The translations under genes were made by a program, and so were the position numbers. A DNA stretch of 61,321 bases, counting the filler, from Candidatus Babelota bacterium (GTDB lineage: Bacteria; JAGOBX01): assembly GCA_017999075.1 (NCBI GenBank). It is 6 parts of 6 records of this genome, joined end to end, with 100 filler letters (N's around TTAATTAATTAA, not from the genome) between each part and the next. Parts side by side here need not be neighbours in the genome. Positions count along the whole stretch, not along the records: positions 41,094 to 51,192 come from JAGOBX010000090.1; 5 more parts are not named here. The stretch is one strand, 5' to 3'. Each line of letters begins with the position of its first letter. Within the stretch, counting starts at the first letter, position 1. Below the pieces are notes generated by a model. The model saw only the letters and a list, made by a program, of their open reading frames with translations, was not told the origin of the DNA and ran no database searches. Shown here piece after piece: positions 8,316-50,613 of the stretch.

Positions 8316-9788
8316 ATGCTTCCATTAAACAGTCTTATATTTTTTTTAATATTTGACGCTATACTTATAAATTGCGGAATCATTATTTCCTTTTATTTAA
8401 AATTCAGAGGAAACGTTCCTGATTATAATCTTCAGGGGTATGAAGGATTATATATTTTTTTAACTTTTTCTTATTTTATAGGCATTTTCATAAACGGATT
8501 ATATAAAAAACCAGAAAATATATCTTACTATAAAATCATAAAAAATTCCGTTAAATCCGTAATAATTTCAACTTTATTATCAATGATGTTCGGATATATT
8601 TTACGTTCAGGAAGGGCAAATTCATTTCCTGCATCAGTATTTATTTTATCAATATTTATTAATTCGTTCATTCTGATTATTTCAAGAGCTTTATCAAAAT
8701 CTTTTGTTATAAACGTTAAATTTTACAATAAATTAATTGCGTTCATATTAAACAGAATACCAGAAACATTATTTATAACAGCAGGAATTTATGTTTCTTA
8801 TTTAATAAAATTCAGAACATTAAACATTCCGGAATATAATTTCAGTCCATTCGGGTTCAGTACATTTATAATATGCGTATCATATTATATTTTCATATAC
8901 AAATTCTTATTGTACAAATACAGCAGAGAACAGTCCAATATCTCAGTTTTGTATGTAACGGTAAAAACTACAATAGCTTCTTTTATTACAGGATCAGCGC
9001 TACTTTTCATTTTCCGTGAAAAAGTAATGGGATTCCCGTCATCAGTATATTTTATAAGCTGCATAATCAATTATTTTTCTCTGGCAATATGGCATATTTT
9101 GATAAGGCGCGGTTTTTTAAATGAAATTGAAGTTGATTTGGATGCCGAAGAACCTGAAGATGAAAATTGTGCAGACGCAGGTGAACTGCCCGCAGAACGA
9201 GATGGTTTTTCAACTTATTTCAGGGCATTTCATTCACCAACAAAATTTATTGAAAGTTTCAAAAATTTCGGTTCTGAATTTTTCAATTCATCAGTGATTT
9301 TGTTTTTAATAGGATGGTGGATGATACTTGTTTATATGGTTTTTATGCCTGATTATTTAAAAAATATTATTATACGAAACCCTGACAATTCTGCTGTTAT
9401 TCATAATGGTCCTCTATTTTCAAATATTACTTTTCTTACATTCGCCATAACAGTAGGTTCATTTTATATATTATGGTGTTTATTAAACCATATAATATTA
9501 AAATTTTTCAAGAAAGAAAATATGATAAGATTCTGGGCCGGAAGTTTTTATATATTTTCATTAAACATAGTTCTATATTTAATTTGGATTATATCCGGCA
9601 ATTTTTTTATTAAACCTGTTTCGATATCTGTTGCAGTTATAATATTCGCATGGCTATTTATTCTGAATGCCAAGTTAATATCAAAAATATTTGATGTAGC
9701 ATTTTTTAAATCAATTATTATAAATTTAATTTCATTATTTTTATCATCAGTTATAATAACAGTTATTATATTTTATATAAATAAATAA
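8316..9788 (+). CDS. Polytopic membrane protein: two tandem WcaJ/WbaP-N-terminal-like 4-TM modules plus a Yip1-like C-terminal domain
   Basis: Internal repeat (YLKFRG.NVPDYN...GLYK...FPASVFILS vs YLIKFRTLNIPEYN...LLYK...FPSSVYFIS), acidic linker, then FHSPTKFIESF and about 5 TMs; function unknown. Confidence 0.5.
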   Translation: MLPLNSLIFFLIFDAILINCGIIISFYLKFRGNVPDYNLQGYEGLYIFLTFSYFIGIFINGLYKKPENISYYKIIKNSVKSVIISTLLSMMFGYILRSGRANSFPASVFILSIFINSFILIISRALSKSFVINVKFYNKLIAFILNRIPETLFITAGIYVSYLIKFRTLNIPEYNFSPFGFSTFIICVSYYIFIYKFLLYKYSREQSNISVLYVTVKTTIASFITGSALLFIFREKVMGFPSSVYFISCIINYFSLAIWHILIRRGFLNEIEVDLDAEEPEDENCADAGELPAERDGFSTYFRAFHSPTKFIESFKNFGSEFFNSSVILFLIGWWMILVYMVFMPDYLKNIIIRNPDNSAVIHNGPLFSNITFLTFAITVGSFYILWCLLNHIILKFFKKENMIRFWAGSFYIFSLNIVLYLIWIISGNFFIKPVSISVAVIIFAWLFILNAKLISKIFDVAFFKSIIINLISLFLSSVIITVIIFYINK

Positions 9789-14905: not shown

Positions 14906-16243
14906 TTATTTTCTGGCTAATCTGAATAATCCGTCATCAGTTCCAATCCATATATAATAAGGATCTAAAAACAATTCTGTGAAATGAGTAAAATCTGTTC
15001 TGAATTTATCGTTTAAATCTTTTTTGTCGTTTATAACCCATTTGCGGCTTAAAGAATCATATTCGAGAAAACCTGTTTCTGTTGAAATCCAGATTTTATT
15101 ATTATCTTTAGCAAGGGAATATACTGTGTTTAAATAATTTTCGCTGTTTCTGTTTTTAGCAGGAAAATTAGATTTCTTGTGTATTTCCCAGTAATCCGTA
15201 TGTCTGTTATAATAACTTATTTCATCAATATTTTCAATTAGAAAATTGTTGAATTCGTCTATTAAAACTTTTTTTATAATTTTGTTGCCGAGATAATTTG
15301 CCAAATCAAATTCATACCATTCGCTGTTTAATTTTTTATACTGCCAGATGCCGACATCGCTTTTAAACCACACATAAGTATCATCATTGGAAACTAAACT
15401 CATATAATTGCAGGAAAAATCATTGGGTTTCCAGGTTTTCCAGATATCTCTTAGTTTATCATAAATTATTATATTGCAATTAAATGTTATGAACCATACA
15501 TAATCAGGATAAACAATTATTTCAGCGATTTCTGATGTTTCAAAAACATTAGATGAAGCGCGTTCAGAATAAGGTTCAGACCATATTTCTCGTTTCATAT
15601 CGAATTTTTTTATTTTGTCTGAGAATCCGAACCATATTTCCTGATGTTCTTCGTCTGCATTAATACACAAAATATTAGTGTCCTGAATTTCTTCTTTAAA
15701 AGTAGAATATAACCACGTAAAAACAGGTTTATTGAATTTATATAACCGTATTTTATCAAAATCAATTTTTTTAAAATAGTAATATTCTTTCTTATTATAC
15801 TTAGGAGATAACTCCTGAATTAAATCCATGTCAAAATAAGTTCGAAGCGATTTTTTTACGGATTTGTCTTTATAATTGAAAATATACCATCCGGAATCAT
15901 AAAATTTTCTTGTTTCTTCGAGATATATCCAGAGATTGTCGTCAACGATTTTCATAATCCCGACGTTTGCATTAGGAATGAATAATTCGAAATCTGAAAA
16001 AATTGTATTAATTTTTATTGTTTCATCAGATATGATATTAAGATTATCCGCAATTTTTTTCTGAGGAGTGATTTTATCACTGAAAAATACTGGTGTTTTT
16101 TTTGGCTGATTTACTTTTATTTCAACTTCTTTCTGGCCTCCGATAACTATCGGTGATTTAAAATCCTGATCAGTAGTTTTACATGATTGAAAAAAAATCA
16201 GGACTGAAAATACTGCAATTACCTTTAAATATATTGATTTCAT
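14906..16243 (-). CDS. Putative lipoprotein with beta-propeller-like repeats
   Basis: Signal ending FFQSC (lipobox-like); recurring D-x-x-x-(V/I)W(F/I) blades ending YIWIGTDDGLFR. Confidence 0.55.
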   Translation of the reverse strand: MKSIYLKVIAVFSVLIFFQSCKTTDQDFKSPIVIGGQKEVEIKVNQPKKTPVFFSDKITPQKKIADNLNIISDETIKINTIFSDFELFIPNANVGIMKIVDDNLWIYLEETRKFYDSGWYIFNYKDKSVKKSLRTYFDMDLIQELSPKYNKKEYYYFKKIDFDKIRLYKFNKPVFTWLYSTFKEEIQDTNILCINADEEHQEIWFGFSDKIKKFDMKREIWSEPYSERASSNVFETSEIAEIIVYPDYVWFITFNCNIIIYDKLRDIWKTWKPNDFSCNYMSLVSNDDTYVWFKSDVGIWQYKKLNSEWYEFDLANYLGNKIIKKVLIDEFNNFLIENIDEISYYNRHTDYWEIHKKSNFPAKNRNSENYLNTVYSLAKDNNKIWISTETGFLEYDSLSRKWVINDKKDLNDKFRTDFTHFTELFLDPYYIWIGTDDGLFRLARK

Positions 16244-20659: not shown

Positions 20660-22264
20660 GTAGTATATGCTGCCCTGATAGATAATCAGAAAAATGCGAT
20701 GTTTTATAAAACTTCTAAGAATTTTTTGGAAAAAAAAGGAAAACCCTCTCAGGAAACACATTTTATAAATTCTGAGTTTGAAGGGAAAAACATTAAAGAT
20801 AACTTGATAAATAATGTTTTTAAATTAAAAAAACAGCAGGGTGAAGATTATTTCGATCCGAAATTTAAAATTAATATTTATAAAATTGCTCAGCCGATTA
20901 TAATTAATGACGAACTGTGGGGAGTAGTTGTTCTCGGGTTTTCTCTTGAAAATTTGTATAAAGAAATTTCTGCCATGCAGGATAATTTTAAAGTTAAAAT
21001 TGTCCAGGAAAAAAATCGTCTTCAGTCTGAATCAATAAAACAGAAGGTTGAAGAAATAGATAAAATAAAGAAAAATCTTACTGTAATTCAGAAAAATATA
21101 AGAAAGGATGTTCGGGAAAATGCTTATTATTATTTTATAGGTTTTTCAATTCCTGGTTTGATACTGGCATTTTTGTTTGGAAAAAATATTGCCAAGCCGA
21201 TAATTTCAATGGTTCCTGTCCTGCAGAAAATCTCTAAAGGTATACTGACAGATAAAATTAAAATGAGGAGAAACGACGAAATTAAAATTCTCGGCGATGG
21301 AATAAATACCATGATAGATGAACTTAATAGTATGATTTCTACGATAAATGGTATTATAAAGTCGATCACATCAGAAAATCAGAACTTATTGAATTTTTCA
21401 AGACATACAACAACCACTATAGATACGATTTCAGGAAACATTAATGAAATAGAAGTGGGCGTATTGAATAATTCTATGGATGTGAATGCTACTGCCGATC
21501 GTTTAAAAAGGTTCGTAGATACTCTAAGCCAGATGACTCAAAACGTCATTACTTTAAATCAGAATGCTGAAACTACTGAAAACGTTTCAAATGAAGGAAA
21601 AGAATCGTTTAATAATCTTCTGTCTAAAATGGAAAATATAGAAGACGGATTCAAACAAACCGATACTCTTGTTACTGAACTAAGTAAATTTTCTTTTGAG
21701 ATAAAAGATATAATTAAAGTCATTGAAGATATTGCAACACGTACAAGAATGCTTGCATACAGCGTAAATGTTATAGCTCAGAAAGGAGGACAGCAGGATA
21801 AATCGATCACAAATATAGCTGTGGAAGTCCGTAATTTGAGCAAGTTTATTTCTGATTATTCATCAAACATAATGAAACTTATGGATAACAACAATGTTTT
21901 GATTGAAAAAATATTTAATTCTACAAAAGCAGGATTAAAGAATATTGAGTCTGGAATTATGACTTCAAATATTTTGATGAATTCAATGAATGAAATAGTT
22001 GAAAAAGTTAATACTGATAAAGTCATGATTAATGATATATCTAATATGATTGCGGATATAGATAAAGAAAGTAAAACTATTTTTGCTTCCACTGAGAATA
22101 TAAGCCAGGTGAGTTCGCAAATGTCGAATTTAATCACATCAACGGCAAAAGCGATTTATGAAGAACGGGAAACTATTAAACAATTAAATTATTCGGTAAA
22201 TAAATTAAAAGATATAGCTGATTCTTTAAGAAATAAAATGAAAGAATTTACAATAAATGAATAA
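20660..22264 (+). CDS. Methyl-accepting chemotaxis-like protein (Cache-like sensor, TM, HAMP, signalling domain), 5'-truncated
   Basis: Frame open back to the contig start; IAQPIIINDELWGVVVLG, TM, HAMP (KPI...GIL...RNDEIKILGDGINTM), heptad signalling domain with divergent tip. Confidence 0.82.
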   Translation, partial: VVYAALIDNQKNAMFYKTSKNFLEKKGKPSQETHFINSEFEGKNIKDNLINNVFKLKKQQGEDYFDPKFKINIYKIAQPIIINDELWGVVVLGFSLENLYKEISAMQDNFKVKIVQEKNRLQSESIKQKVEEIDKIKKNLTVIQKNIRKDVRENAYYYFIGFSIPGLILAFLFGKNIAKPIISMVPVLQKISKGILTDKIKMRRNDEIKILGDGINTMIDELNSMISTINGIIKSITSENQNLLNFSRHTTTTIDTISGNINEIEVGVLNNSMDVNATADRLKRFVDTLSQMTQNVITLNQNAETTENVSNEGKESFNNLLSKMENIEDGFKQTDTLVTELSKFSFEIKDIIKVIEDIATRTRMLAYSVNVIAQKGGQQDKSITNIAVEVRNLSKFISDYSSNIMKLMDNNNVLIEKIFNSTKAGLKNIESGIMTSNILMNSMNEIVEKVNTDKVMINDISNMIADIDKESKTIFASTENISQVSSQMSNLITSTAKAIYEERETIKQLNYSVNKLKDIADSLRNKMKEFTINE

Positions 22265-23876
22265 TTTAAAACAATTTATTACAAATAATTTTCTTAATAA
22301 TATTGATGGGTCAATAGCTTTGCCTGAGGATTTTCAAAAAATTGAAAACATACAAGAGTATTTTATCAGGTGTGCTGAAATTTTTAAATCCGATAATGCT
22401 GAGTTTTTAAATAAATTCCTTATAATATCTTCATTTTTTGAGAATGAGAATAATTATAAAGTTTTGGATTATGATTCATTAGCTTTGCTTTTTCAGGATA
22501 TTGCCGCAGAAATTAATTTAAAACATGATATAGAATCAAAAAATTGGATTATATATTCATATCCTGAATTTATCGAGGAAGCAGACAGATGTTCCGAGAA
22601 AATATACTCATTAACTTATGTTAATTTAAAAAAACACATTTTATCAGTTCAGAAAACTAAAGAATATATTATTTCAAGACAAAAAAAAATTAATGAATTT
22701 ATTAAAATTGACAGCAACATAATTGATCAGCTTGCGGCAATTATTACAGAACTATCAATAAACAAAAACAAACTTTTAAAATTATCCGGAAAAAGCGGGT
22801 TAGACGATTCCCTGACTGAAATTTCAGGAAATATAAGTAATATAGTAAACAGAATAAATAACAGTCTTTCCAAAATTACTTTTATGCCTTTAATACAGGT
22901 TTTCAATAGATTTCCTTCTATAGTTAACGACCTTGCAAATAAATTGGGAAAAAGGATAATTTTCGTGATAAACGATAATAATGTCGTGATAGATAAAAAA
23001 ATTGCCGATACTGTAGGAGAAGTGTTTATTCATTTGATAAAAAATTCTGTTGATCATGGAATCGAAGAACCTGATATAAGAAAACTTCGTAATAAAAACG
23101 ATGTTGGTTCTATTGAAATAAGAGCTCAGCAAACAGGTAATTACGTTGTTATAAAAATGATAGACGACGGCAAAGGTCTGGACTCGGAAAAAATATTGAA
23201 GAAAGCTCTTGAAAAAAAAATTATAGAAGAGCAGCATATAAAAGAAATGACCGATGAAGAAATTTATGGTTTGATATTTATGCCTGGATTTAGCACTGCG
23301 GAAAAAGTCAGTGATACCTCAGGCCGCGGAGTAGGTATGGATGCTGTTAAAAATAATATAGAAAAAATCGGAGGTACGTTAAGTTTAAAATCAGAATTCG
23401 GAAAAGGAACTACTGTAATTATAAGAATCCCGTTTCAGATAATTTTGACGCAGCTGGTGTTTGCGCGTCTTCATAAATACGGCAGCCTTCTGGCATTTAC
23501 CCTTGACTACATTGAAGATATAATTTATTATGATGGCGGCAACTCTGAAAATTTTGAAGTTTCTGCAAATAATGAAATGTTTTTCAGGAATAATGATTTG
23601 AGAATTCCTGTATGGAGATGTTTGGGACATAAATATGAAAATCTGAATGAATATAAGCGTGCTATAATATTTTCAAATAATGTTGATAAAGTCGCAATAC
23701 CTGTTTTTGAGATTATAGAACAGACTGATGCAATAGTTAAAAATTTTACAGATAGAGATTTAAAAAATAAAATGCCGGAATATTTTATAGGGTATACAAT
23801 ATTTGATGATGAACTTACTCCGGTGCTTGAACCTGATTTCAGCGGTTATAATTCTGGAGGAAAAGATAATAGATGA
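22257..23876 (+). CDS. cheA: CheA-like histidine kinase (P3-P4-P5) without a recognisable HPt domain
   Basis: IKID...IDQL dimerisation start, FNRFP, HLIKNSVDHGIE (N box), DDGKGLD, IFMPGFSTA, SGRGVGMD, GKGT, C-terminal CheW-like domain. Confidence 0.85.
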   Translation: MNNLKQFITNNFLNNIDGSIALPEDFQKIENIQEYFIRCAEIFKSDNAEFLNKFLIISSFFENENNYKVLDYDSLALLFQDIAAEINLKHDIESKNWIIYSYPEFIEEADRCSEKIYSLTYVNLKKHILSVQKTKEYIISRQKKINEFIKIDSNIIDQLAAIITELSINKNKLLKLSGKSGLDDSLTEISGNISNIVNRINNSLSKITFMPLIQVFNRFPSIVNDLANKLGKRIIFVINDNNVVIDKKIADTVGEVFIHLIKNSVDHGIEEPDIRKLRNKNDVGSIEIRAQQTGNYVVIKMIDDGKGLDSEKILKKALEKKIIEEQHIKEMTDEEIYGLIFMPGFSTAEKVSDTSGRGVGMDAVKNNIEKIGGTLSLKSEFGKGTTVIIRIPFQIILTQLVFARLHKYGSLLAFTLDYIEDIIYYDGGNSENFEVSANNEMFFRNNDLRIPVWRCLGHKYENLNEYKRAIIFSNNVDKVAIPVFEIIEQTDAIVKNFTDRDLKNKMPEYFIGYTIFDDELTPVLEPDFSGYNSGGKDNR

Positions 23877-25081
23877 TCAACCAGCGGATAAAATTATATT
23901 TATATTTATTTTTAAGCGTACTATCAATATTAGTTAATTTTGCCGGATATTATTATATTTCCATTTATAACCGGAATATATTGAATTTGTTTTTTATAAT
24001 AAGCCCTTTGATTACAATTTTTGTTTTTTTTGTTGGCACAAATTATATATTTGAAAAAATTTTAAAAAATAAATTTCAGATATTTTCGGATGATTATTTT
24101 CAAAATTATTCTTTGAAAAAAACAGAAAGTATTAAGATTTTAAAAACAGAAACTATTGATCAGCTTATGTCTCAGATTTTTTCTGATATAAAAAGAATTA
24201 AATTAGAAAATATTGATGCAAATGAAAAATTGAAGAAATTTATCGTTTTATCAAATGAATTTTCATCAGAACTCGAATCGTTTAAGATTTCAAGTATAAC
24301 TGATTTAAAAAACGGGCAAACCAACTGCGGGTACATACTTAAAAAAACAGGTGAAATTTCAGATTTTTTATTTGAGTCTGAGACAATATTAAAATCAATT
24401 AAAATTAATTTTACAAATTCTATCGGAAAAATAGATGGGAATTTAAAAAATAAAACTAAACTTACTGAACATTTGAATAAATTGATTTTGATTACAAAAG
24501 ATTTTGATAAAATATTTGAAAATATTCAAGAGTTCGGCAGCGACTTTAAATCTAAAGAAGAAACTGTTATTTCAAAAATAACCAATATGATAAATAATGT
24601 TGAACGGCAGTCTATAAATATATTGAACGCTTATATTTTTTCAAATCAGGAAAATCAGTCTGCAACTGTATCAGATCATTCGTCTGAGTTTGAGCGTGAA
24701 GAAAATCTTCAGAATATAAAGAATATGAACGAATCTATAAAAAATGAAATTATGCAGATAAAAAATTCCCTTCTTGTGTTATTCGAATTAACAAAGATTT
24801 TTAAAACTGAGTTTGACAAAAATGCGGATGTTTTCAAACAGCTGAACGGTTATCTGGCTCAGATTCCGCAATATATTTCGAATTTTTTTGAAACCGATGA
24901 TTTGATAAAAAATATTTTGCAGCGCGATTCTTTACAGCTGACAAAAATGTTTGATAAGCTTAATAATGAAACTGAAAATGTGAAAAACATTAATCTTAAA
25001 CTCAATAATTTATCGAAAAGCATTGATGATTTTAATTCTGAGATTATTAAATTGAATTTTGGTGTAACTGAAGAATCCTGA
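23873..25081 (+). CDS. Two-TM coiled-coil protein, probably a degenerate MCP-like protein
   Basis: Two adjacent N-terminal TMs and long heptad repeats; ERQSINILNAYIFS weakly echoes the MCP tip motif; 4-nt overlap with cheA. Confidence 0.45.
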   Translation: MINQRIKLYLYLFLSVLSILVNFAGYYYISIYNRNILNLFFIISPLITIFVFFVGTNYIFEKILKNKFQIFSDDYFQNYSLKKTESIKILKTETIDQLMSQIFSDIKRIKLENIDANEKLKKFIVLSNEFSSELESFKISSITDLKNGQTNCGYILKKTGEISDFLFESETILKSIKINFTNSIGKIDGNLKNKTKLTEHLNKLILITKDFDKIFENIQEFGSDFKSKEETVISKITNMINNVERQSINILNAYIFSNQENQSATVSDHSSEFEREENLQNIKNMNESIKNEIMQIKNSLLVLFELTKIFKTEFDKNADVFKQLNGYLAQIPQYISNFFETDDLIKNILQRDSLQLTKMFDKLNNETENVKNINLKLNNLSKSIDDFNSEIIKLNFGVTEES

Positions 25082-32992: not shown

Positions 32993-35509
32993 TTAATCTT
33001 CTTTCAATGCTTTCAATTCTTCTTTAGTGCGTTTCCTTAAACTCAAAGCATTAGCAAAACATTTCAAAGTACAGATTCCGCAACCTATACATTTTTCAGG
33101 ATCAGTAACAGGGATTTTTTTATCATTCAAACTTATAGCCATATACGGACACCTTGAACAATTTCCGCAATGTTCGCACAAATCCTCATTAACAGCAGAT
33201 ATTTTTTTAACAGGAGTCAATTCCATAAAACCTACTGTATGTTCAGGGAGAATAATACCGATTAATTCTTTCATAGATTTAATTCCGCGCTGTTTCATCA
33301 ATTCGCTCAATCCATTTGCCAAATCCTTATAAATACCATAGCCGTATTTTGTAGCAATAGTGCAGAACTGTACGGTTTTACAGCCAAGAGCAAGGAAATT
33401 TCCGGCCGCTTTATAATCCATAGGTCCGCCATTACCTGAAATATGAAGTTTTAAAGAAGAAATGTTCGCAAGATTAAAATTACTTATCGGAGTTACTCCT
33501 TCGCCGCTCATTCCTATAACAACTCCATCTTCCCAAACCCTGTTTTTTCTATTCTGAAAATCAAGAGTAGGGAAAGTATTAGCTAAAGTAATTCCGGCTT
33601 TCTTTTTAGGATATTTATCAAACACCCGTTTAACAGCTCTTCCTATTACATGTATGGAAGTTACAGCTCCGGTAAGTTTAAAAAGTTTCGGTATTTCAGG
33701 ATCGCTGCATTCCATTACCCAATCAATGATTTTAGCTGTTAATTCAGCGTTTTGAGAAACTATATCGCCTTCTGTTCCATCGCCGCCCTGAGGACACGAC
33801 AAACTGTATTCAATACCCATAACCCCGGCTTTTTCAAGTTTTTTAGTATTTGCCTGCCATCCTTTTTTATCATTAGCGTCATCTCCTGTAACTGGCCCTC
33901 CTGTTGATGCCATCGTCAATCTGTCAGGATATAATTTTATAAGTTTTTTAACCTCAGCGCACACTCTGTCAAGAGAATGCCCTGAAACATTATCACAGTT
34001 GCCGTAAGTATTTTCATTATACACGCACATATATTCAGACGGTATATGTATAGGTATTCCGTCAAACGCAGTTTTCATTATACCGCCTGCCCATCCGTTT
34101 TCATAAGCTTTTTTCATCTGATCAAACCCATCGCTTGTAGGAGCGGCTGACAGCAAAAACGGAGATCTGATTTTTCTGCCGAAGAAATCAGTTTCAAGAG
34201 ATACAGGTTCAGGATTATACCCGTCAATCACAGCAATGCTTTTAACCTTTTTCTCGATTTTAGGAGGTTTTTTTGAACTTAAGAAAGCTTCAACTTCAAC
34301 TCCAGTATTTTTTCCTGCTGCCACAGCTTCTACAACAGTAGTAGGTCCATTATCGCAATCTCCAGAATAAAACAATCCTTTAATTTTATTTTTTTTCAAA
34401 CCAGAATGATTTCCTATTGCAATAATAACAAAATCAATATCATTTCTTACCTGATTAGTATTCGGAATTTCTTTAATATCTCTCAAATTGAATTTAACTC
34501 CTGACGGAAGTTCAACTTTCGCAGTTGATAATCCTGTTATTTTCTTTCCATCAGAACTCAATATTCCCGTAACTTTTATTCTTCCATTAACATCTATTCC
34601 GCTTTCAATCAATTCACGCATTTCCTGAACTGTCAGCGGCATTTCACCGAGAACTTCAAGCGCAAAAATTTCTACGCGTTTAGCTCCTGATTTTTCCGCT
34701 GTGAAAGCGCAATCAGCAGCAGTAGCTCCGCCGCCTATTACAGCAACGCGTTTATTTTTCAAATTATGTTTTTTAAAATCCGACAGATATTCTGTTCCTG
34801 AAACTCCCAAATTTTCATTTAAAATATTCATTTTATAGGATACAGGCAGTCCGGTACATACCACTACAGCATCATATTTTTTTGTCAATCCGGCAAAATC
34901 CTGTTCTTTCACTTCTGTTTTATATTTAACATTTATATTTGACAGCGAATATACAAAATCTATATCGCTTTTCAAAACATTTTTAGGAAGACGAAAATCA
35001 GGAATCAGATTGCAGGCTCCGCCTGATTTATCAGTTTTTTCCAAAATGTCGACCTTATATCCTTTCTGCGACAAATATGCGGCACAGGCAATGCCTGCAG
35101 GACCTGCTCCTACAAGGGCAACTTTTTTACCATTTGGTTTTATTTTTTTAAATTCAGGCATTACTCCAAGTTCTTTTGCTTTCTGAACAAGTTTTGACTG
35201 AATATTAGGGATATCCAATGAAAAATCAAATTCCTTATGAACGCAGCCGCTCATACAATGTTTATCAGGACATACCATCCCGCATATTCCTCCAAGAGGA
35301 TTCAAACTTAATATTTCAGCTGCGGCACGCCTGAAATCAGAAGGATTTCCCAATTTAGCAGCCATTATAAAATCCGCCGGAGAACAATTCGCCGGACATG
35401 CTGTTTTACAGGGTTTTTCTTCACAATATTCACACTTACCAATTTCATTTTTCAATTGACCTTCCGAATAAAAAAATCCTTTATCGCGCAGTTTTTTCAA
35501 TTTAATCAC
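32993..35509 (-). CDS. Single-chain dihydropyrimidine dehydrogenase-like enzyme (PreT-PreA fusion)
   Basis: CEYCEEKPCKTACP, NPLGGICGMVCP, GAGPAG, GGGATAADCA (GltD/PreT); then SPFLLSAAP, GWAGGIMKT, LSCPQG, KLT, ANT, ISGNGG (FMN barrel) and a C-terminal 2x[4Fe-4S] ferredoxin (PreA). Confidence 0.85.
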   Translation of the reverse strand: MIKLKKLRDKGFFYSEGQLKNEIGKCEYCEEKPCKTACPANCSPADFIMAAKLGNPSDFRRAAAEILSLNPLGGICGMVCPDKHCMSGCVHKEFDFSLDIPNIQSKLVQKAKELGVMPEFKKIKPNGKKVALVGAGPAGIACAAYLSQKGYKVDILEKTDKSGGACNLIPDFRLPKNVLKSDIDFVYSLSNINVKYKTEVKEQDFAGLTKKYDAVVVCTGLPVSYKMNILNENLGVSGTEYLSDFKKHNLKNKRVAVIGGGATAADCAFTAEKSGAKRVEIFALEVLGEMPLTVQEMRELIESGIDVNGRIKVTGILSSDGKKITGLSTAKVELPSGVKFNLRDIKEIPNTNQVRNDIDFVIIAIGNHSGLKKNKIKGLFYSGDCDNGPTTVVEAVAAGKNTGVEVEAFLSSKKPPKIEKKVKSIAVIDGYNPEPVSLETDFFGRKIRSPFLLSAAPTSDGFDQMKKAYENGWAGGIMKTAFDGIPIHIPSEYMCVYNENTYGNCDNVSGHSLDRVCAEVKKLIKLYPDRLTMASTGGPVTGDDANDKKGWQANTKKLEKAGVMGIEYSLSCPQGGDGTEGDIVSQNAELTAKIIDWVMECSDPEIPKLFKLTGAVTSIHVIGRAVKRVFDKYPKKKAGITLANTFPTLDFQNRKNRVWEDGVVIGMSGEGVTPISNFNLANISSLKLHISGNGGPMDYKAAGNFLALGCKTVQFCTIATKYGYGIYKDLANGLSELMKQRGIKSMKELIGIILPEHTVGFMELTPVKKISAVNEDLCEHCGNCSRCPYMAISLNDKKIPVTDPEKCIGCGICTLKCFANALSLRKRTKEELKALKED

Positions 35510-40229: not shown

Positions 40230-40832
40230 TTAAATAATATTTAATATCCGTTTTATCATATCGCTGAGTTCTTTAATTTTTATAGGCTTAGAAACATATG
40301 AATCTGCCCCTGTCGCATATATTTTTTCAATATCTGAAAGTTTATTTAATCCGGTTAACGCTATAATCGGAATTTTTTTGGTGGATTCGTAGTTTTTAAA
40401 ATATTTTATAGTTTCAAAACCGTCCATTTCAGGCATTACCATATCAAGTAAAATTAAATCGGGTTTAAAATCTACAGCTTTTGTGCCTGCCTCAATACCA
40501 TTTTTAGCGGTTTCCACTCTATAACCCATCGCTTTTAAATTAATTGATAAAGTGTCTAATATATCAGCATCGTCATCAACGCATAAAATACGCTTTTTAA
40601 TATCTTCCCCCATATTCTTCATAAGCATATTATTTTTACGGACAAATTCTTCAAGGTCAACCAGCCGAATCTTATACTGACCTCCTACTGTCTGAAATGC
40701 TTTTAATTCATGCTGCTGAATCCAATTGCGTATAGTTCTTGCGGAAACAAAACATTTTTTCGCCGCTGCCTGCGATGAAATAACAACATCTTCTTTTTTC
40801 AAATTATCATTGCTTTCATTATTATTTTTCAT
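40230..40832 (-). CDS. Response regulator with N-terminal excisionase/MerR-like HTH
   Basis: SSQAAAKKCFVSARTIRNWI...LKAFQTVGGQYKI; REC domain CVDDD, LLDMVMP, SKP. Confidence 0.88.
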   Translation of the reverse strand: MKNNNESNDNLKKEDVVISSQAAAKKCFVSARTIRNWIQQHELKAFQTVGGQYKIRLVDLEEFVRKNNMLMKNMGEDIKKRILCVDDDADILDTLSINLKAMGYRVETAKNGIEAGTKAVDFKPDLILLDMVMPEMDGFETIKYFKNYESTKKIPIIALTGLNKLSDIEKIYATGADSYVSKPIKIKELSDMIKRILNII

Positions 40833-44035: not shown

Positions 44036-47000
44036 CTAAACCGATATTTTATTATCATAAAAACTGAATAACCCATCTACGATTTCCGATTTGATATTAA
44101 ATAAATTCAAATTACTGAAATTGGAAATCATATCTGATTTTATTTGATCAAGACGCAATTTTGCTTCAAACTGGTTATTGATTTTGTCATTAGAACTGTA
44201 TAGCGAATCAATACGCGAATGACCGTAATCAATAGCTCCGTTTAATAATTCGGAAATTCCTCTTATATTGTTGAGTTCTGTTTCAACAATATTTTTGGCA
44301 TTTGCGTATATCGCATAAACTTCGCGGGGAGTTTTGAATTTTATGTTATCATAATATATTCCCAATTGTTTTGTTGTTAATTGGTTAGGAAGCCCGATAT
44401 CTATTTCGTCCATATTTTCACTGCTTAATATTTTTATATCATTAATTTCTACATTAAAGGAATATTCTCCGGGTTTTATGTTGTTATAAAAATCAGAGTT
44501 AGCACTATCCCATATAACGGAAATAGCAGAATTACCGTTTCCTACAATGTTTTCTCTGCCTTCGTAAATATTAGTTTTAGGTCCTCCATTGAATGAAGCG
44601 ACAGCCTGATGAGATAATTTTAATTGAATCGTATCTCCTGAAGCAAAAACATTATCTGCAGATGCAGGAGCTACTCCGTTAGCATTAACTTTACCGTTAA
44701 TAAAATCATCCCATCCCTGTATAGAAATATCTATTGAAGTTTTTCCGCCGTCTGCTCCTGTTTTAGTGAAAGTATTTGTAGTAGCTCCGTTTTGAGCCAT
44801 TTGTATATAATTATCGGCATTCGGAGCAGTATCATTAGTGAGTTGACCTGACTGATTACTGTAGACTTTCCAATTTCCTGAACCAGCATAAACTAAATAT
44901 ACTGTTTCGTTAGTGTAAGTTGCCTCGTCATTAATTTTTGTGTTGCTGCTGTCGAAAAAATTGTTTGCGGCAGACACATTGTCTTTATCAGAATGGAAAT
45001 CATAACTGAACTGAACTTTCTGAAAATAATTGTCTGTTTGTAAGAAAAAGATTTTATTATCTTCAAAAATTACCGGATTTTTTCCGCTCGGTAAATTTGT
45101 TCCTGTTGTTTTCCATATTTCTGAAACCTGGCTTAAAGAATTACTGTCGTATGATGAATCGAAGTCTATCACTGATTTTGAAAGGTAAATGCTTTTATCA
45201 TCTGATTTTCTGAAAAATAATCCGCCGTATTCATCAGCGTAGGTTAATGAATAATTTGATTTTTGTTCGATTGAAGTTGTTCCTGAAGTATTATCAAAAT
45301 CAGCGTTTTGAACGACAGCATCTTTTATTCTCAAACTAAAACTATCGCCGAAACTATAAGGTTCATTATCAATATTTAATTTTAAAAACGATGAATTGAC
45401 CTGTGAATTTGAAATACTGTAAAAATTATTTTTAGATGAATCATTCAGATGAGCTTCATCTGGATCAATTTCAAGATCCCCGTCAGAAATATCTGTTTGC
45501 GTCGGGTTTACATTTATCCAGAAATTATCGCCTGAAGCCACATTCCCCAGTGAACCGTATTTTTGACTGTTGACTTCCCATATTCCGTTTGTTTCATCTA
45601 TAAGATTGAAAGAAATATAATCTTCAACAATATATTTTCCGAAACTGCCGATATTATCCGCAATAGAATCAATTGATACTTTATCTGAAGTTATATCTCC
45701 GCTTATTATGTCGTCATAAGGTTTAAGATTAATTAAATTGTATCTGTCGCTTAAACTTGTAGAAGGAGAAGAAGAATAATATCTGTAATTTTCTGCAATA
45801 TAGTCATTTGATAAACCGATATTTTTATAAGTATTTCCGCTTATAGAACCCTGCATAACAGTTTTGTTGTTGCTGCTGTCAGCAGGATCAATTTCAGTAA
45901 CAAAATTTGAAATGATCTGATATGAAGATTCTTCGTATAATTTTACAAGAGTATATTTTGAAGTTGCATCAGGAGTTGTTGCCCAATTTGCATCTATGCT
46001 TGCTGTTTTTGTTGTTCCGTCATAATCTGTTATTTTTCTGAATTGGCCTACGCCTGTTCCATCAGTGATAAAAACTCCCCACCCATTAAAATAATCGTCT
46101 ATTCCTGAATATGTATCATCGAAAGTAATGCTGCCTGCGGTTTGCGTTACTGCAGAATGGTTGTTTCCTGTATATTGTTCGGTTGAATCAGTAAGCATTA
46201 CCATAAATTTTGAAGTATTATTTGGAGCAATATCCCAATCGCTTGCAACTGTTGCTGTTCTTGTGCCTCCGGTATATATAGATATATCTTTATATTGTCC
46301 AGCGCCCGGGCCTCCTGTTATAAAGACAGTGTATCCTTTATAAAATGTTGTGAAAGAATCGTTGGTTGTTCCAGGGATATCAGGAAACCTTATTGTTGAT
46401 ATAGAACCGCTTCCTGCCGTGTATTCCGATATAGTTGAACTGAACGGAATCGAATTCGGGAGCTGCATAAGTTTGAATTTTGAATTTAAATCAGGAGTAG
46501 TGGTCCAGTTATCAACTGTCGCTGTTTTAGTAGTTCCGTCATAATCTGTAATTCTTCTGAATTGTCCTGCGCCTGTTCCAGAAGTAATATAAATTCCCCA
46601 ATTATTGTAATAATCGTTTAATGAACTTGACAAAGAAGATGATTTTATAGTGTTTGCGCCTATTGCGGTTATGGTTAAATTATCTGTTCCGTAAAATGTA
46701 TTTTCTATCGTAGCAATTTTAGTAGTTCCGTCATAATCAGTTATGGTATTGTATGTGCCTGCGCCTGTTCCGTTATTTATGTAGAACGCCATACCTGTAT
46801 AAAAATCGTCTTCGCTTGACGATGATTCGTTTAACTGAATTGTATTTTGAGTAGTATTATTGAATTGCAGTAAAGCATTTTCTTCAATAATTCCGCTGTA
46901 TCCTATATAATATTTTCCGTCTGAACTTTTAAGTATTTCCGGATAGCTTGCAGGACTTGATATGCTGTCGGAAAGTTCTGTTATTGAACCTGCATTGCTG

Positions 47001-49477
47001 TAATCCGTGTCAGTTACATCAAAATATTTTATCGGATGATATATATAATATTTGGAAGAAGAGGTCGTACGGCTTAATAAAGGTTCATTTAACCATGCAT
47101 TTTTGTTGACTCCGTCGTATGAAGAAATAGTCCGCACCTGACTTCCTATAGATATCTGCATGCCTGTATAATAATTATCCACGCTGCTTGCAGTTGATTC
47201 GAGTTTGACATACTGGTTTGTAGTTGATTTTACGAAACCTGCTTCGGTTTGTTTGAATACAGCCATTTTTCCGTCTGCATCTATGTAAGAAGAAGATAAA
47301 GTTCCTCCAGGCAATCCTAAATTTTTTATGAATGTATATGTGCTGGCTGCTACAGCAGCAGGATCAGCCCAATTACTGTCAACTGTAGCTGTTTTTGTTA
47401 TTTCATTGTAAGCTGTGACAGTTTTAGATTCATTGTTTACTGTTATTATTGAACCAACATAGGAATTTGCAGTGGCTGAAGCAGTGGCTGCGAGAGTAAT
47501 TGTGTTTGCAGTAGCTCCAGTTGCGGTGCCGCTGTGATTTGCGCTGATTATTGCAGCGTCTTTAAATATATTTGATGTTGTAGCTCCTTCAAAATTGTAA
47601 ATTTTAATTTTTTGCGAATCAATATTGTCGTTATAAACAATAGAATATTTTCCTGATTCGTATTCTGTAATATCATATTTCGAACTTGAATCTCCGCCGG
47701 CTATTTTGACTCCGGTATAATACGGCTTAAGATAATTAGCCGAACTTTCGTTCATATCAAGAGAATATAACCCTGATGAATACAGCTTATATTGGGTAGT
47801 ATTGTCAGGTCTGTTATAATCACTTGTAAAAGTAACCTGGTATACTGAAGAAGCATTAGGTATAATATTGTTTATTACATATTGAGATGTAGTATTTATA
47901 GCTACATCAATTGTGTAATCCTGACCTGTTATTGTGCTGCCGTCTCCGTCTGCCCAGTTACTGTTTACAGTTGCTGTTTTAGTGGCGCCGTTATATGCTG
48001 TAATGGTTTTTATTTCTCCATTAACATTTATTTCAGAACCTGTATATGCATCATTAACAGCAGAAGCTCCTGCGCTGAATGTTATAGTATTTGCAGTTGC
48101 AGCTGCAGAAACACCGCCGTGATTAAGAATTCCCTGTTCGGATATGTTCCAATCCGAATCAACAGTAATTTCATTTGTAGTTGCGTTATAAGCTGTTATA
48201 TTTTTTGTGGAATTTGTTATTCCTGCGGTTAAAGTTACAGAAGCTCCAGAATAATAATTTGTATAAGTTTTTATGTCTCCTGATTCGAGAGCTAAAGTGT
48301 TGGTTCCGCTTCCTGCGCTTGCTGCATTTCCTGTAACGTTAGTATTCCAATCCGTATCTAAAGTTAAAGTATTTGTTCCGTTATTGTAAGCTGAAACAGT
48401 TCTGATTTCTCCTGCAGCAGGTCCTGAAATTATTTTTACTGATGCGCTGGTATAATTTAAGTCGGGAGCGTCATCAGCTAATATTATTGTATCCAAAGCT
48501 GCTCCGTTTTTTGCCTGTGCTTTATGAGTCGTCCAATCGCTGTCAACTGTCGCAGTATAAGTAGATGCATCGTACGCTGAAATTGTTTTAGTTTGAGAAT
48601 AACCGCTGCCTGAAGTGAGAGTTATTGTAGAACCTGCATAAAAATCATTTATATCTTTTCCGATTGGATCAAGATCAGCAGAATTAAATTGTATTGTGTT
48701 ATTTCCTCCGCCTGAACCTGCCGCTGTTCCCGAAGAAGATGTCTGACCTACGAATAATCCAACGTCTCCGGCTTTTTTTAAACCGTACATATTTATTATT
48801 CCATCTACGCTAATTTTTGAACCGATATTTACTTCGTATGCCCCGCCAGATTTGCTTGCTCCGTAAACTTTGCTTAAATCAAATTCAATATTATTTTCAA
48901 ATTCGATTTCCAGATTATTTGCGCCTGCTGAAATTTCGTTGGATGAATAAGAAACGCCGTTTATTGAAAAAGTTTCTGGAACTGATAGTGTTCCTGAAAA
49001 GTTTGAGCCGCTTAAAGTTGTAACATTCGGATCAATAGTTTTTTCTGCTGAAAAGATTTTTTTGTTTGCTAATTCTGTAATGCTCAGATAATCTTCAATT
49101 TTTGAATTGATATCTTTTAATTTTTCAGAAAGCGATGAAATGCTGTTTATGGTTTGTTCACTGTCGTTTAATTTATAATCAAAAAAGTTTGTAAGCACAA
49201 TTTTTGCTTCTTCAAGAAGATTTATAATTTCTTTGTAAGAATTTTCTGAATAATCTATTCCTACTATACCTTCCTGGAGGCTTTTTCTTACTCCATTCAT
49301 AGCATAAGTTAAATTATATATGAAAGAAGGCATAACAGCCTGAAAATTTGCAGATATGGTTTCTCTGTCTAAACCATAAGCATCATCAATTTTTGACAGT
49401 TTTGATTGTAATACATTTGAAATTTTTGTAAATTGCGACTGAATTGCAGAAGAATTGGAAACTTGATTTAAAGACAT
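44036..49477 (-). CDS. Giant flagellin-like protein (1813 aa) with a repeat-rich central insert
   Basis: N-terminal ~145 aa follow the flagellin pattern (KIDDAYGL~DDAAGL; LQEGI..IDYSENSYKEIINLL~QDGISLIQTAEGALNEI..IL; TELANKKIF~TEFNGKKLL); last ~130 aa helical like the flagellin C-terminus; no signal peptide. Confidence 0.68.
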   Translation of the reverse strand: MSLNQVSNSSAIQSQFTKISNVLQSKLSKIDDAYGLDRETISANFQAVMPSFIYNLTYAMNGVRKSLQEGIVGIDYSENSYKEIINLLEEAKIVLTNFFDYKLNDSEQTINSISSLSEKLKDINSKIEDYLSITELANKKIFSAEKTIDPNVTTLSGSNFSGTLSVPETFSINGVSYSSNEISAGANNLEIEFENNIEFDLSKVYGASKSGGAYEVNIGSKISVDGIINMYGLKKAGDVGLFVGQTSSSGTAAGSGGGNNTIQFNSADLDPIGKDINDFYAGSTITLTSGSGYSQTKTISAYDASTYTATVDSDWTTHKAQAKNGAALDTIILADDAPDLNYTSASVKIISGPAAGEIRTVSAYNNGTNTLTLDTDWNTNVTGNAASAGSGTNTLALESGDIKTYTNYYSGASVTLTAGITNSTKNITAYNATTNEITVDSDWNISEQGILNHGGVSAAATANTITFSAGASAVNDAYTGSEINVNGEIKTITAYNGATKTATVNSNWADGDGSTITGQDYTIDVAINTTSQYVINNIIPNASSVYQVTFTSDYNRPDNTTQYKLYSSGLYSLDMNESSANYLKPYYTGVKIAGGDSSSKYDITEYESGKYSIVYNDNIDSQKIKIYNFEGATTSNIFKDAAIISANHSGTATGATANTITLAATASATANSYVGSIITVNNESKTVTAYNEITKTATVDSNWADPAAVAASTYTFIKNLGLPGGTLSSSYIDADGKMAVFKQTEAGFVKSTTNQYVKLESTASSVDNYYTGMQISIGSQVRTISSYDGVNKNAWLNEPLLSRTTSSSKYYIYHPIKYFDVTDTDYSNAGSITELSDSISSPASYPEILKSSDGKYYIGYSGIIEENALLQFNNTTQNTIQLNESSSSEDDFYTGMAFYINNGTGAGTYNTITDYDGTTKIATIENTFYGTDNLTITAIGANTIKSSSLSSSLNDYYNNWGIYITSGTGAGQFRRITDYDGTTKTATVDNWTTTPDLNSKFKLMQLPNSIPFSSTISEYTAGSGSISTIRFPDIPGTTNDSFTTFYKGYTVFITGGPGAGQYKDISIYTGGTRTATVASDWDIAPNNTSKFMVMLTDSTEQYTGNNHSAVTQTAGSITFDDTYSGIDDYFNGWGVFITDGTGVGQFRKITDYDGTTKTASIDANWATTPDATSKYTLVKLYEESSYQIISNFVTEIDPADSSNNKTVMQGSISGNTYKNIGLSNDYIAENYRYYSSSPSTSLSDRYNLINLKPYDDIISGDITSDKVSIDSIADNIGSFGKYIVEDYISFNLIDETNGIWEVNSQKYGSLGNVASGDNFWINVNPTQTDISDGDLEIDPDEAHLNDSSKNNFYSISNSQVNSSFLKLNIDNEPYSFGDSFSLRIKDAVVQNADFDNTSGTTSIEQKSNYSLTYADEYGGLFFRKSDDKSIYLSKSVIDFDSSYDSNSLSQVSEIWKTTGTNLPSGKNPVIFEDNKIFFLQTDNYFQKVQFSYDFHSDKDNVSAANNFFDSSNTKINDEATYTNETVYLVYAGSGNWKVYSNQSGQLTNDTAPNADNYIQMAQNGATTNTFTKTGADGGKTSIDISIQGWDDFINGKVNANGVAPASADNVFASGDTIQLKLSHQAVASFNGGPKTNIYEGRENIVGNGNSAISVIWDSANSDFYNNIKPGEYSFNVEINDIKILSSENMDEIDIGLPNQLTTKQLGIYYDNIKFKTPREVYAIYANAKNIVETELNNIRGISELLNGAIDYGHSRIDSLYSSNDKINNQFEAKLRLDQIKSDMISNFSNLNLFNIKSEIVDGLFSFYDNKISV
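45905..48745 (-). repeat. About 10 copies of a ~70-aa intragenic repeat (NTI.L...S...D.Y.G..I.IT.G.G.GQ.R.IT.YDG.TK.ATVD..W...PD.TS.Y)
   Basis: Seen in the protein (e.g. GTGAGQFRRITDYDGTTKTATVD, GTGVGQFRKITDYDGTTKTASID) and in DNA (GTTCCGTCATAATC near 46014, 46533 and 46725). Confidence 0.9.
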
Positions 49478-49482
49478 TTTTA

Positions 49483-49515
49483 TCCTCCCTGTTGTCTGTA
49501 ATCAAAATCCGTTTG
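49483..49515 (-). promoter_or_regulatory. Candidate CsrA-binding leader and RBS of the flagellin-like gene
   Basis: Minus strand CAAA-CGGAT-TTTG hairpin with GGA in the loop, then CAGGGAGGA Shine-Dalgarno. Confidence 0.45.
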
Positions 49516-49540: not shown

Positions 49541-49569
49541 AATATATCAAAATTTTATACTAATGTCAA
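49541..49569 (-). promoter_or_regulatory. Sigma70-type promoter of the flagellin-like gene
   Basis: Minus strand TTGACA(49569-49564)-17 nt-TATATT(49546-49541), with TG extended -10. Confidence 0.6.
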
Positions 49570-49677: not shown

Positions 49678-50613
49678 ATGAATAGTAATAATAACTTTAG
49701 ATACGAATCTGTTTCTTTTGCCGTTCCTGCGTTTACTACTGTAATAAAAACTATAGTAATTATAAATGCCGCATTGTTTTTTTTAGATAATATTTTTTCT
49801 AATCTCAATATTTCATATTATTTTGTGTGGTCATATAATGCTATAATATATAAATATGAAGTGTGGCGGTTATTTACTTATTCATTTGCTCATTTGAATT
49901 TGCCTGATTTAATTTTAAATATGCTTATACTATGGATGTTTGGTTCTGAATTGGAAAATAAATGGGGAACGAAATTTTTTGTTAAATATTATTTGGTATC
50001 GGTTATAGGTGCAGGAATTTTATCTCTTCCGTTTGCAATAAACAGCAGTATGCCGTTATGGGGTGCAAATGCGGTAATTTTGAGTTTGCTTACTGCATAT
50101 GCCGTGAGTTCCCCTAATAAAATAGTTTATTTTATGATGTTTTTTCCTATGAAAGTAAAATGGCTCGTTGCTGTCATAGGGTGTATAAATTTACTTATGG
50201 TTAAACCGGACGATAGCAGCAGCCTTATGTATTTGCTTCATATTAACGGAATTGCCGCAGGATTTATTTATTTAAAGTATTCTATAATTATTGATATGAT
50301 AAAAAATAAATTCCGCAGAAGAAATATTTTTGTTGATAATTTGAAATATATTAAAAATTCCGGATATAAAAAAAATTACGATAAAATTAATATTTATTCG
50401 TTTAATGATACTAAAACTTCAATAGATTCGCGAAAAACGGGAAAAAATGAAGTTAAATCAGAAATAATAGATTTGGATAAAAAAATTGATGAAGTTCTGG
50501 ATAAGATTAAAAATAACGGAATGGATTCGCTTAATTATGAAGAAAAAATGTTTTTAAAACGCGCCAGTCATTTATTGAAAAATAAATATTCTGAAAATAA
50601 TGTTAAGGATTGA
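49678..50613 (+). CDS. Rhomboid-family membrane protein with small C-terminal domain; catalytic Ser apparently absent
   Basis: VWRLFTYSFAH, NMLILWMFGSELE..WG, HING; C-terminal IDEVLDKIKNNGMDSLNYEEKMFL. Confidence 0.85.
   Translation: MNSNNNFRYESVSFAVPAFTTVIKTIVIINAALFFLDNIFSNLNISYYFVWSYNAIIYKYEVWRLFTYSFAHLNLPDLILNMLILWMFGSELENKWGTKFFVKYYLVSVIGAGILSLPFAINSSMPLWGANAVILSLLTAYAVSSPNKIVYFMMFFPMKVKWLVAVIGCINLLMVKPDDSSSLMYLLHINGIAAGFIYLKYSIIIDMIKNKFRRRNIFVDNLKYIKNSGYKKNYDKINIYSFNDTKTSIDSRKTGKNEVKSEIIDLDKKIDEVLDKIKNNGMDSLNYEEKMFLKRASHLLKNKYSENNVKD

Follow-up and report, generated by a model that had tools for sequence, protein, structure and literature searches.

Thomson et al. (2018, PMC6248924) describe giant flagellins of more than 1000 residues, for instance that of Bermanella marisrubri, and report that they arose repeatedly in many phyla; a review (PMC9254593) also treats them as a known kind. 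Here, we analyze a stretch of 61,321 nucleotides, filler included, from a Candidatus Babelota bacterium (GenBank assembly GCA_017999075.1), which joins six parts of six records and is referred to as the window. The longest open reading frame (ORF) of the window lies in the part taken from JAGOBX010000090.1 and encodes a protein of 1813 residues, P0001. We consider it fairly probable that P0001 belongs to the flagellin superfamily as a giant member that has diverged strongly, with a surface insert of ~1,530 residues; it would be exported by the flagellar apparatus and might have a place in the filament. Its likeness to the giant flagellins lies in helical termini placed around a very large surface-exposed insert, as PMC6248924 presents them. 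However, the giant flagellins described so far keep canonical D0/D1 termini that Pfam detects, whereas P0001 does not. Giant flagellins being known, what appears from the sequence to be new is a strongly diverged form without a library-detectable D0/D1 core. The literature on giant flagellins that was searched, exclusive of supplements, which may list longer flagellins, contains no description of the P0001 family or of its repeat.

Translation bears out the 1813-residue ORF and all the peptide strings quoted in a previous reading of this DNA made without database searches (the sequence-only reading): KIDDAYGL stands at residue 29, ANKKIF at 137, EIDIGL at 1691, TTKQLGI at 1701, and AKNIVETELNNIRG at 1727. 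Three relatives assist the delineation of the features below: an orthologue in the metagenome-assembled genome (MAG) G001, 64-69% identical and split over three contigs at the repeats; P0005 (1361 residues, N-terminally incomplete), 41% identical to the C-terminal part of P0001; and P0006, a fragment. Hidden Markov models (HMMs), hhalign comparisons, and structure models provide the boundaries, and L036 and L043 are two flagellins of related genomes.

44036 to 49477, minus strand: coding sequence of P0001 (1813 residues), stop codon included (ORF list, translation, orthologue).
49043 to 49477, minus strand: N-terminal helical region, residues 1-145, proposed ND0, ND1a and ND1b (low-confidence helices; hhalign; HMM match to L036).
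48713 to 49042, minus strand: proximal beta-rich segment, residues 146-255, kept in the orthologue (alignment, low-confidence model).
48506 to 48712, minus strand: repeat module 1, residues 256-324 (iterated HMM, as for all the modules).
48326 to 48508, minus strand: repeat module 2, residues 324-384.
48119 to 48313, minus strand: repeat module 3, residues 389-453.
47927 to 48103, minus strand: repeat module 4, residues 459-517.
47354 to 47521, minus strand: repeat module 5, residues 653-708.
47057 to 47230, minus strand: repeat module 6, residues 750-807.
46667 to 46861, minus strand: repeat module 7, residues 873-937.
46484 to 46666, minus strand: repeat module 8, residues 938-998.
46214 to 46411, minus strand: repeat module 9, residues 1023-1088.
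45962 to 46147, minus strand: repeat module 10, residues 1111-1172.
44408 to 45949, minus strand: non-repeat beta-rich region (~510 residues), residues 1177-1690, common only to P0005, P0006 and the G001 orthologue.
44039 to 44407, minus strand: C-terminal region, residues 1691-1813, with an LGI turn and proposed CD1 and CD0 helices (low-confidence helices; hhalign; HMM match to L043).

P0001 contains no cysteine in its 1813 residues, and residues 1-30, as read from the translation, are polar and devoid of a hydrophobic signal-peptide core, in agreement with the previous claim that a Sec signal is missing. The absence of cysteines and of a cleavable signal peptide, together with a polar N-terminus, is shared with the flagellin family and is typical of, although not exclusive to, substrates of flagellar type III secretion. 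Thr, Ser, Gly and Asn together account for 33-52% of nearly every 100-residue block between positions 101 and 1700. AlphaFold2 was run on residues 1-330 and 1111-1813, each from a four-row alignment. Both models are poor (mean pLDDT, predicted local distance difference test, of 37). At this low confidence, they place helices at residues 3-33, 38-70, 80-100 and 106-142 of the N-terminal end and at residues 1717-1761, 1769-1787 and 1796-1808 of the C-terminal end, with mostly strands between the terminal helices of the modelled parts. The composition and these tentative helices are in line with the proposal of helical termini around a Thr/Ser/Gly/Asn-rich beta insert, and the modelled helix positions resemble the ND0/ND1a/ND1b and CD1/CD0 layout of flagellin. 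Within the insert, the iterated HMM reports ten solid copies of a ~62-residue repeat (i-Evalues of 4e-21 to 2e-28) and two doubtful matches, with the consensus ..T.NTI.L....S..ND.Y.G..I.IT.G.G.GQ.KTITAYDG.TKTATVDS.W. The repeats announced by the sequence-only reading are thus real, but they do not form a strict tandem array, as the copies are separated by other beta-rich, non-repeat segments. The low-confidence models and a weak Pfam uL24-like match at residues 347-375 suggest that the repeat unit is a five-stranded small barrel of the SH3/KOW type.

The phylum of G001 is represented by three genomes only in the collection (G001, G002 and G003). Pfam analysis of G001 reports 13 Flagellin_N matches, open frames of 1120 and 1242 residues among them, while 10 are reported for G002 and 8 for G003, where long frames measure 1029, 1251 and 1559 residues. 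Flagellin_N and Flagellin_C are both present on the giants L036 (1559 residues) and L038 (1019 residues) and on L043 (611 residues). These family matches show a lineage with expanded predicted flagellin genes, giants included, and P0001 exceeds in length every flagellin frame seen in the three genomes. G001 also encodes FlgK, FlgL and a canonical FliD (FliD_N match on contig C111), and on contig C17 flgK is closely followed by a gene whose product has an N-terminus of the FlgL type. The two giant flagellins of G001, central domains included, contain no copy of the P0001 repeat. A search for FlaA, the spirochaete sheath protein, returned no match, though the control genomes gave none either. 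Among the flagellin loci of the three genomes (L002-L018 and L036-L050), the C-terminal ends of L036, L038, L041, L042 and L043 are very divergent.

The main evidence for a flagellin origin of P0001 comes from comparison of its termini with profiles built from 35 flagellin/FlgL sequences of the phylum and four FlgL-like proteins (34 sequences for the N profile). hhalign aligns the family N-terminal alignment with the phylum N profile in register (score 28.8, P 4.4e-4, columns 1-163 against 1-174), and the family C-terminal alignment with the phylum C profile (score 22.0, P 3.9e-3, columns 2-120 against 12-132). The non-cognate pairings score 13.2 for N against C and 14.6 for C against N (P 0.18 and 0.11), reversed queries yield 15.4 (N) and 8.6 (C), and none of 200 column shuffles reaches the N or the C score against the combined flagellin and FlgL profile (maxima 20.5 and 16.1). 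With flagellin-only profiles, the scores are 27.9 (P 7.9e-4) for the N-terminus and 29.5 (P 1.8e-4) for the C-terminus, the cross-controls over the combined and flagellin-only tests giving P values of 0.06-0.35. At the level of single flagellins, the C-terminal HMM of the four-sequence family matches the last 125 residues of L043 with 23.6 bits (E 3.3e-7, Z=114 ORFs). L043 is itself a verified flagellin (93 bits with Pfam Flagellin_N and 23.9 bits with Flagellin_C), and the match spans HMM positions 5-116, covering the LG turn and both helices, with LNGDIELL opposite LGGIQNRF and NDKINN..EA opposite FQDTDYSTE. None of 1000 shuffles reaches this score (maximum 9.6), and the reversed sequence scores 1.3. 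The likeness extends further inwards: hhalign of A7 against L043 gives P 7.9e-4 over 160 columns, reaching into the preceding beta domain, and the last ~100 residues of region 1177-1690 can be aligned with the L043 beta domain located ahead of its C-terminal helices. For the other end, the family N-terminal HMM matches the 1559-residue flagellin L036 in register (13.8 bits, E 2.7e-4, positions 46-145 against 40-137, 0 of 1000 shuffles). Both termini thus align with flagellin D0/D1 in order and in register, at modest significance.

A number of results, drawn from the comparisons themselves, from conservation, from the genomic setting and from the promoter, weigh against this flagellin reading. 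Pfam Flagellin_N (PF00669) and Flagellin_C (PF00700) are absent from whole P0001 at E<=10, and they are equally absent, at the same threshold, from the isolated termini of P0001 and its orthologue and from P0006, so that this check, proposed in the sequence-only reading, turned out negative. The NCBIfam search of P0001 gives no match. Beyond these family libraries, PDB sequence searches, run with each terminus alone, with the repeat region and with profiles of the termini, return chance-level rows or none; the Bacillus subtilis flagellin appears there at E 0.8-3.6, out of register, and was discarded as a chance-level match. A Protein Atlas feature search ranks the N-terminal part at best at 0.76-0.80, which is the chance level, and returns nothing for the C-terminal part. 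Within the phylum, a BLASTP comparison of P0001 with L043 yields E 0.39, alignment A5 reaches P 0.031 with L036 in hhalign, and hhalign against six G001 flagellins is co-linear for the N-terminus but gives P 0.13, with P 0.21 for the C-terminus. HMMs of the G001 flagellins score 8-11 bits for the N-terminus and report no signal for the C-terminus, non-cognate pairings beating shuffles about as often, and the 35-sequence HMM gives just 4.2 and 1.3 bits. As single sequences, the P0001 C-terminus scores 10.7 against the C profile, within the range of 33 natural decoys (maximum 14.1), and the N-terminus scores 24.8, barely above the best decoy, a methyl-accepting chemotaxis protein (MCP) at 21.9. 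A rank test based on the area under the curve (AUC) is non-specific, with values of 0.88-0.89 for all four cognate and non-cognate pairings, and no G001 flagellin is picked up by the family N profile at E<=10; apart from the orthologue, its only match there, weak at E 0.35, is a helical membrane-protein-like ORF, judged to be chance. Significant results were obtained only after the profile had been enlarged and the mact parameter lowered, and several profiles were tried. Weighted for this, the profile comparisons argue, with modest strength, for a real but remote homology of the P0001 termini to the flagellins of the same phylum. The flagellin kinship put forward by the sequence-only reading therefore stands as far as the profiles of the phylum are concerned, with both termini in register, and finds nothing in the general libraries (Pfam, PDB sequences).

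Classical flagellins have termini that are far better conserved than their central region. P0001 differs in this respect: identity to the G001 orthologue is flat along the protein (64% for the N-terminal part, 67% for the middle, 69% for the C-terminal part), and the last 134 residues are 36-37% identical to those of P0005 and P0006, as compared with 40-42% for the whole C-terminal 624 residues. Because conservation of the termini does not exceed that of the insert, the P0001 core is arguably under relaxed or different constraint, which is consistent with the "eroded core" previously suggested. Such uniform conservation would be less fitting for the main subunit of the filament than for a minor one or for a secreted paralogue. 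Among 1.84 billion representatives, the C-terminal 624 residues have P0005 and P0006 as their only two relatives, and the family amounts to about three clusters at 50% identity. A word-indexed search of the N-terminal 260 residues against shorter proteins returns one 97%-identical fragment only, and near-identical fragments of P0001 occur in other metagenomes, the scan returning the same MAG contig and one 99% fragment. As relatives are so few and the metagenome scans yield near-identical fragments only, the P0001 family appears to be very small. Among the three genomes of the phylum, the C-terminal family and the repeat are confined to G001, and the sequencing runs with matching DNA are wastewater or activated-sludge metagenomes from 3 studies, with no RNA run listed.

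The genomic setting is not flagellar. Downstream of the P0001 gene are genes for pyruvate kinase, TPR proteins, a response regulator and a TonB-C protein, and upstream are a divergent rhomboid gene and a racemase gene; neither the P0001 gene nor its G001 orthologue is adjoined by flagellar genes. The promoter, judged a strong one, and the 5' leader, read on the minus strand, comprise the following elements.

49541 to 49569, minus strand: sigma-70-type promoter with TTGACA (49569-49564), a 17-nt spacer and the extended -10 element TGaTATATT (49549-49541), read from the sequence.
49483 to 49510, minus strand: 5' leader with two GGA motifs, GGATTTTGATTA (from 49510) and ACAGGGAGGA (49492-49483), the latter overlapping the Shine-Dalgarno sequence; candidate CsrA sites, kept in the orthologue.

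The G001 orthologue has the identical TTGACA-N17-TATATT layout upstream, so both promoters are of the sigma-70 type and the sigma-28 motif is absent from both. A promoter of this predicted type does not support late-class regulation of P0001. Three flagellin genes of G001, both giants among them, possess sigma-28 promoters of the form TAAA-N15-GCCGATAT, while further G001 flagellin genes are also devoid of this motif. Near-identical sigma-28-type promoters (TAAAGTTTT..TTTTTTGCCGATATAT) precede L013, L014 and L007 of G001 and L036 of G003; for the giant flagellin genes the distance is large and the leaders measure ~130-170 nt, and other flagellin genes of the same genome have sigma-70-like promoters. 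The leader of P0001 ends in ACAGGGAGGA, 5 bases ahead of the ATG. At 25 nt or less from the start, the motif CA[AG]GGA is present in 15 of the 31 axial flagellar genes of the phylum but in 2 of the 49 genes of the window, that of P0001 being one of the two, and in P0001 it overlaps a strong Shine-Dalgarno sequence, as in those 15 genes. Judged by sequence, this is a flagellin-like translation-initiation region. The fliW and csrA genes are adjacent in all three genomes of the phylum, and the motif over the Shine-Dalgarno sequence would fit either CsrA-type control or merely very strong translation. The only other window gene with CA[AG]GGA near its start (at -18) is the divergent rhomboid gene (49678-50613, plus strand).

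The repeat module links P0001 to proteins of other kinds. A search with the repeat profile reports 81 proteins, of which four are FlgL-like (three with Flagellin_N and Flagellin_C, one with Flagellin_N only) and one is FliD; 14 contain DUF4815, 2 Pectate_lyase_3 and 1 Phage-Gp8, and most of the others read like phage tail fibres. With one repeat unit as the query, 22 IMG/VR contigs are returned, and at two of the three loci checked the repeat lies inside baseplate wedge subunits (phrog_438). The likeness to phage virion proteins, which the sequence-only reading had put forward as unverified, was therefore correct, and the spread over phage and cellular proteins, a comparison it had called for, is mostly on the side of phage fibre and baseplate proteins. 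The repeat unit of the phage baseplate wedge (phrog_438, gp8-like) and of the tail-fibre-like proteins shares 40-68% identity with a single P0001 unit, but the scaffolds are entirely different and P0001 has no phage context. The FlgL-like and FliD carriers resemble P0001 more closely in organization, as several copies of the module are inserted between the termini of an axial protein. They differ in having clear Flagellin_N/C or FliD_N/C domains of their own and a length of 685-1106 residues, whereas P0001 has ten copies, extra lineage-specific domains and degenerate termini that are nearer to flagellin than to FlgL. These carriers are P0009, P0014, P0016 and P0020 (FlgL-like, 685-919 residues) and P0015 (FliD, 1106 residues); a second recurring segment, with the consensus ..TLTPG.YDG.PG.TL.DLA..I...L...GF..PV.V.ATPDN.L.., is found on both sides of their modules and is absent from P0001. 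A third type of carrier is represented by P0002 and P0003, of ~3110 residues, with TcA-type Pfam domains (TcA_TcB_BD, VRP1, ABC_toxin_N, neuraminidase-like), in which the module is inserted at several places, in P0002 around residues 264-445, 950-1078 and 2259-2353. Its position suggests that it serves there as an extra surface or receptor-binding domain. The module (~30% identical) is all that these proteins share with P0001, which has none of the toxin domains and no other region in common with them. Taken over flagellar, phage and toxin scaffolds, the distribution of the ~62-residue module is that of a mobile surface domain.

Among the other explanations of P0001, the one that survives best is that of a fibre or adhesin, secreted or on the cell surface, with no flagellar connection. 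Its helical ends would serve generically, as a coiled-coil stalk or for oligomerization, its export would take another route, and its likeness to flagellin would come from helical composition and chance. It would account for the silence of the libraries on flagellin, the sigma-70 promoter and the lack of flagellar neighbours, and it is favoured by the HMM and AUC cross-controls, in which helical composition alone yields part of the signal, and by the helical MCP N-terminus, whose score against the flagellin N profile is 21.9; moreover, the carriers of the repeat are mostly phage fibre and baseplate proteins, flagellar ones being 5 of 81. However, chance likeness agrees poorly with two termini that each match the cognate flagellin domain over its full length and in register, the non-cognate domain being clearly worse, or with a 23.6-bit match to a verified flagellin C-terminus that includes the LG turn and both helices and that none of 1000 shuffles reaches. 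As for the other export route, no signature or partner gene of a type I, type V or type IX secretion system (T1SS, T5SS, T9SS) is seen in the window. We thus regard a non-flagellar fibre as unlikely.

P0001 could also be another flagellar axial protein, namely a variant of the FlgL-like (HAP3) junction protein or of the FliD-like cap equipped with display modules, the former having been among the options of the sequence-only reading. Four FlgL-like proteins and one FliD do carry the P0001-type module, the N-terminus of the orthologue reaches 11.0 bits against an FlgL-like N HMM (0 of 300 shuffles), the family C HMM gives 10.9 bits with the C-terminus of the G001 FliD, and the ending LF(E/Q)YL of P0005 and P0006 resembles the FlgL ending L(M/L)DYL. 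With FlgL-only profiles, however, the N-terminus scores 23.1, out of register, and the C-terminus 13.9, below the 27.9 and 29.5 of the flagellin-only profiles, so the termini are not nearer to FlgL than to flagellin and the junction-protein option fits less well. G001 already has canonical FlgK, FlgL and FliD, and the Pfam FliD_N matches stay at the chance level (E 0.5-1.1), the search with this family also giving matches in 13 of the 14 control genomes, some of them archaeal. An axial protein of this kind is therefore quite improbable. Least credible is a gene without relation to flagella, domesticated from a phage tail fibre or baseplate and belonging to a tailocin or an old prophage: the module does occur in 22 IMG/VR contigs, inside baseplate wedge subunits (phrog_438) at two of three loci checked and in many fibre-like proteins, but phage genes are absent around the P0001 gene in the window and around its orthologue in G001, the PHROGs search of whole P0001 returns no match, and the termini of P0001 are, by eye, unlike those of the phage carriers inspected.

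Returning to a diverged flagellin, support besides the profile comparisons comes from the anatomy of P0001, the flagellin-rich lineage, the module in FlgL-like and FliD proteins and the translation-initiation region. The mode of action of such a protein can be outlined as follows. The ~145 N-terminal and ~120 C-terminal residues of P0001 would keep the D0/D1 helix layout, and the ~1,530 residues between them would be surface domains, made of the ten SH3/KOW-like modules of ~62 residues and of lineage-specific beta domains. Translation is perhaps under FliW-CsrA control, CsrA binding to the leader being presumed. Relying on its polar N-terminus, the protein would be exported from the cell by the flagellar type III apparatus. 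It would then either join the filament as a minor subunit, thick and displaying the modules, or be released like a secreted flagellin paralogue. Campylobacter FlaC is such a paralogue, small, secreted, not part of the filament and without outer domains. P0001 resembles proteins of this kind in its diverged flagellin-related core and in being possibly exported without being the main filament subunit; it differs from FlaC by its size and its outer domains, and its secretion is a prediction. Once outside, the modules may attach to an external ligand, for example a glycan on a surface, a particle or another cell. A bolder proposal, which we consider rather doubtful, is that a flagellin paralogue freed of the constraints of the filament core has become a giant cargo of flagellar export with ten phage-type receptor-binding modules, acting as a flagellum-borne or secreted adhesin, or as a decoy for ligands recognized by the phages of the community, with the module being exchanged among phage baseplates and fibres, Tc-like toxins and flagellar proteins.

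The remainder of the window is ordinary chromosome, with a G+C content of ~30% throughout and including one MCP gene at 20699-22264. An 838-residue fusion (32993-35509, minus strand) combines a GltD-like flavoprotein (Fer4_20 and Pyr_redox_2), a DHO_dh-like barrel and a 4Fe-4S dicluster, and resembles a single-chain enzyme of the dihydropyrimidine-dehydrogenase type. Three ORFs of 402-490 residues (8316-9788, plus strand; 14906-16243, minus strand; 23873-25081, plus strand) have no Pfam family at E<=1e-5. The response regulator at 40230-40832 (minus strand), flanked by TPR proteins and a TonB-C protein, has an HTH_17 domain N-terminal to its receiver domain, which is the reverse of the usual order.

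The P0001 family would widen the flagellin superfamily by a form overlooked in standard annotation, in a barely sampled wastewater phylum whose genomes hold 8-13 flagellin paralogues each. It would also link the outer domains of flagellar proteins to a module that moves among phage baseplates and fibres, TcA-like toxins, FlgL and FliD. If P0001 is exported or built into filaments, it would offer a test case for how much erosion of the core is tolerated before polymerization or export fails, and for the size of insert that the flagellar export channel and the filament lattice can tolerate.

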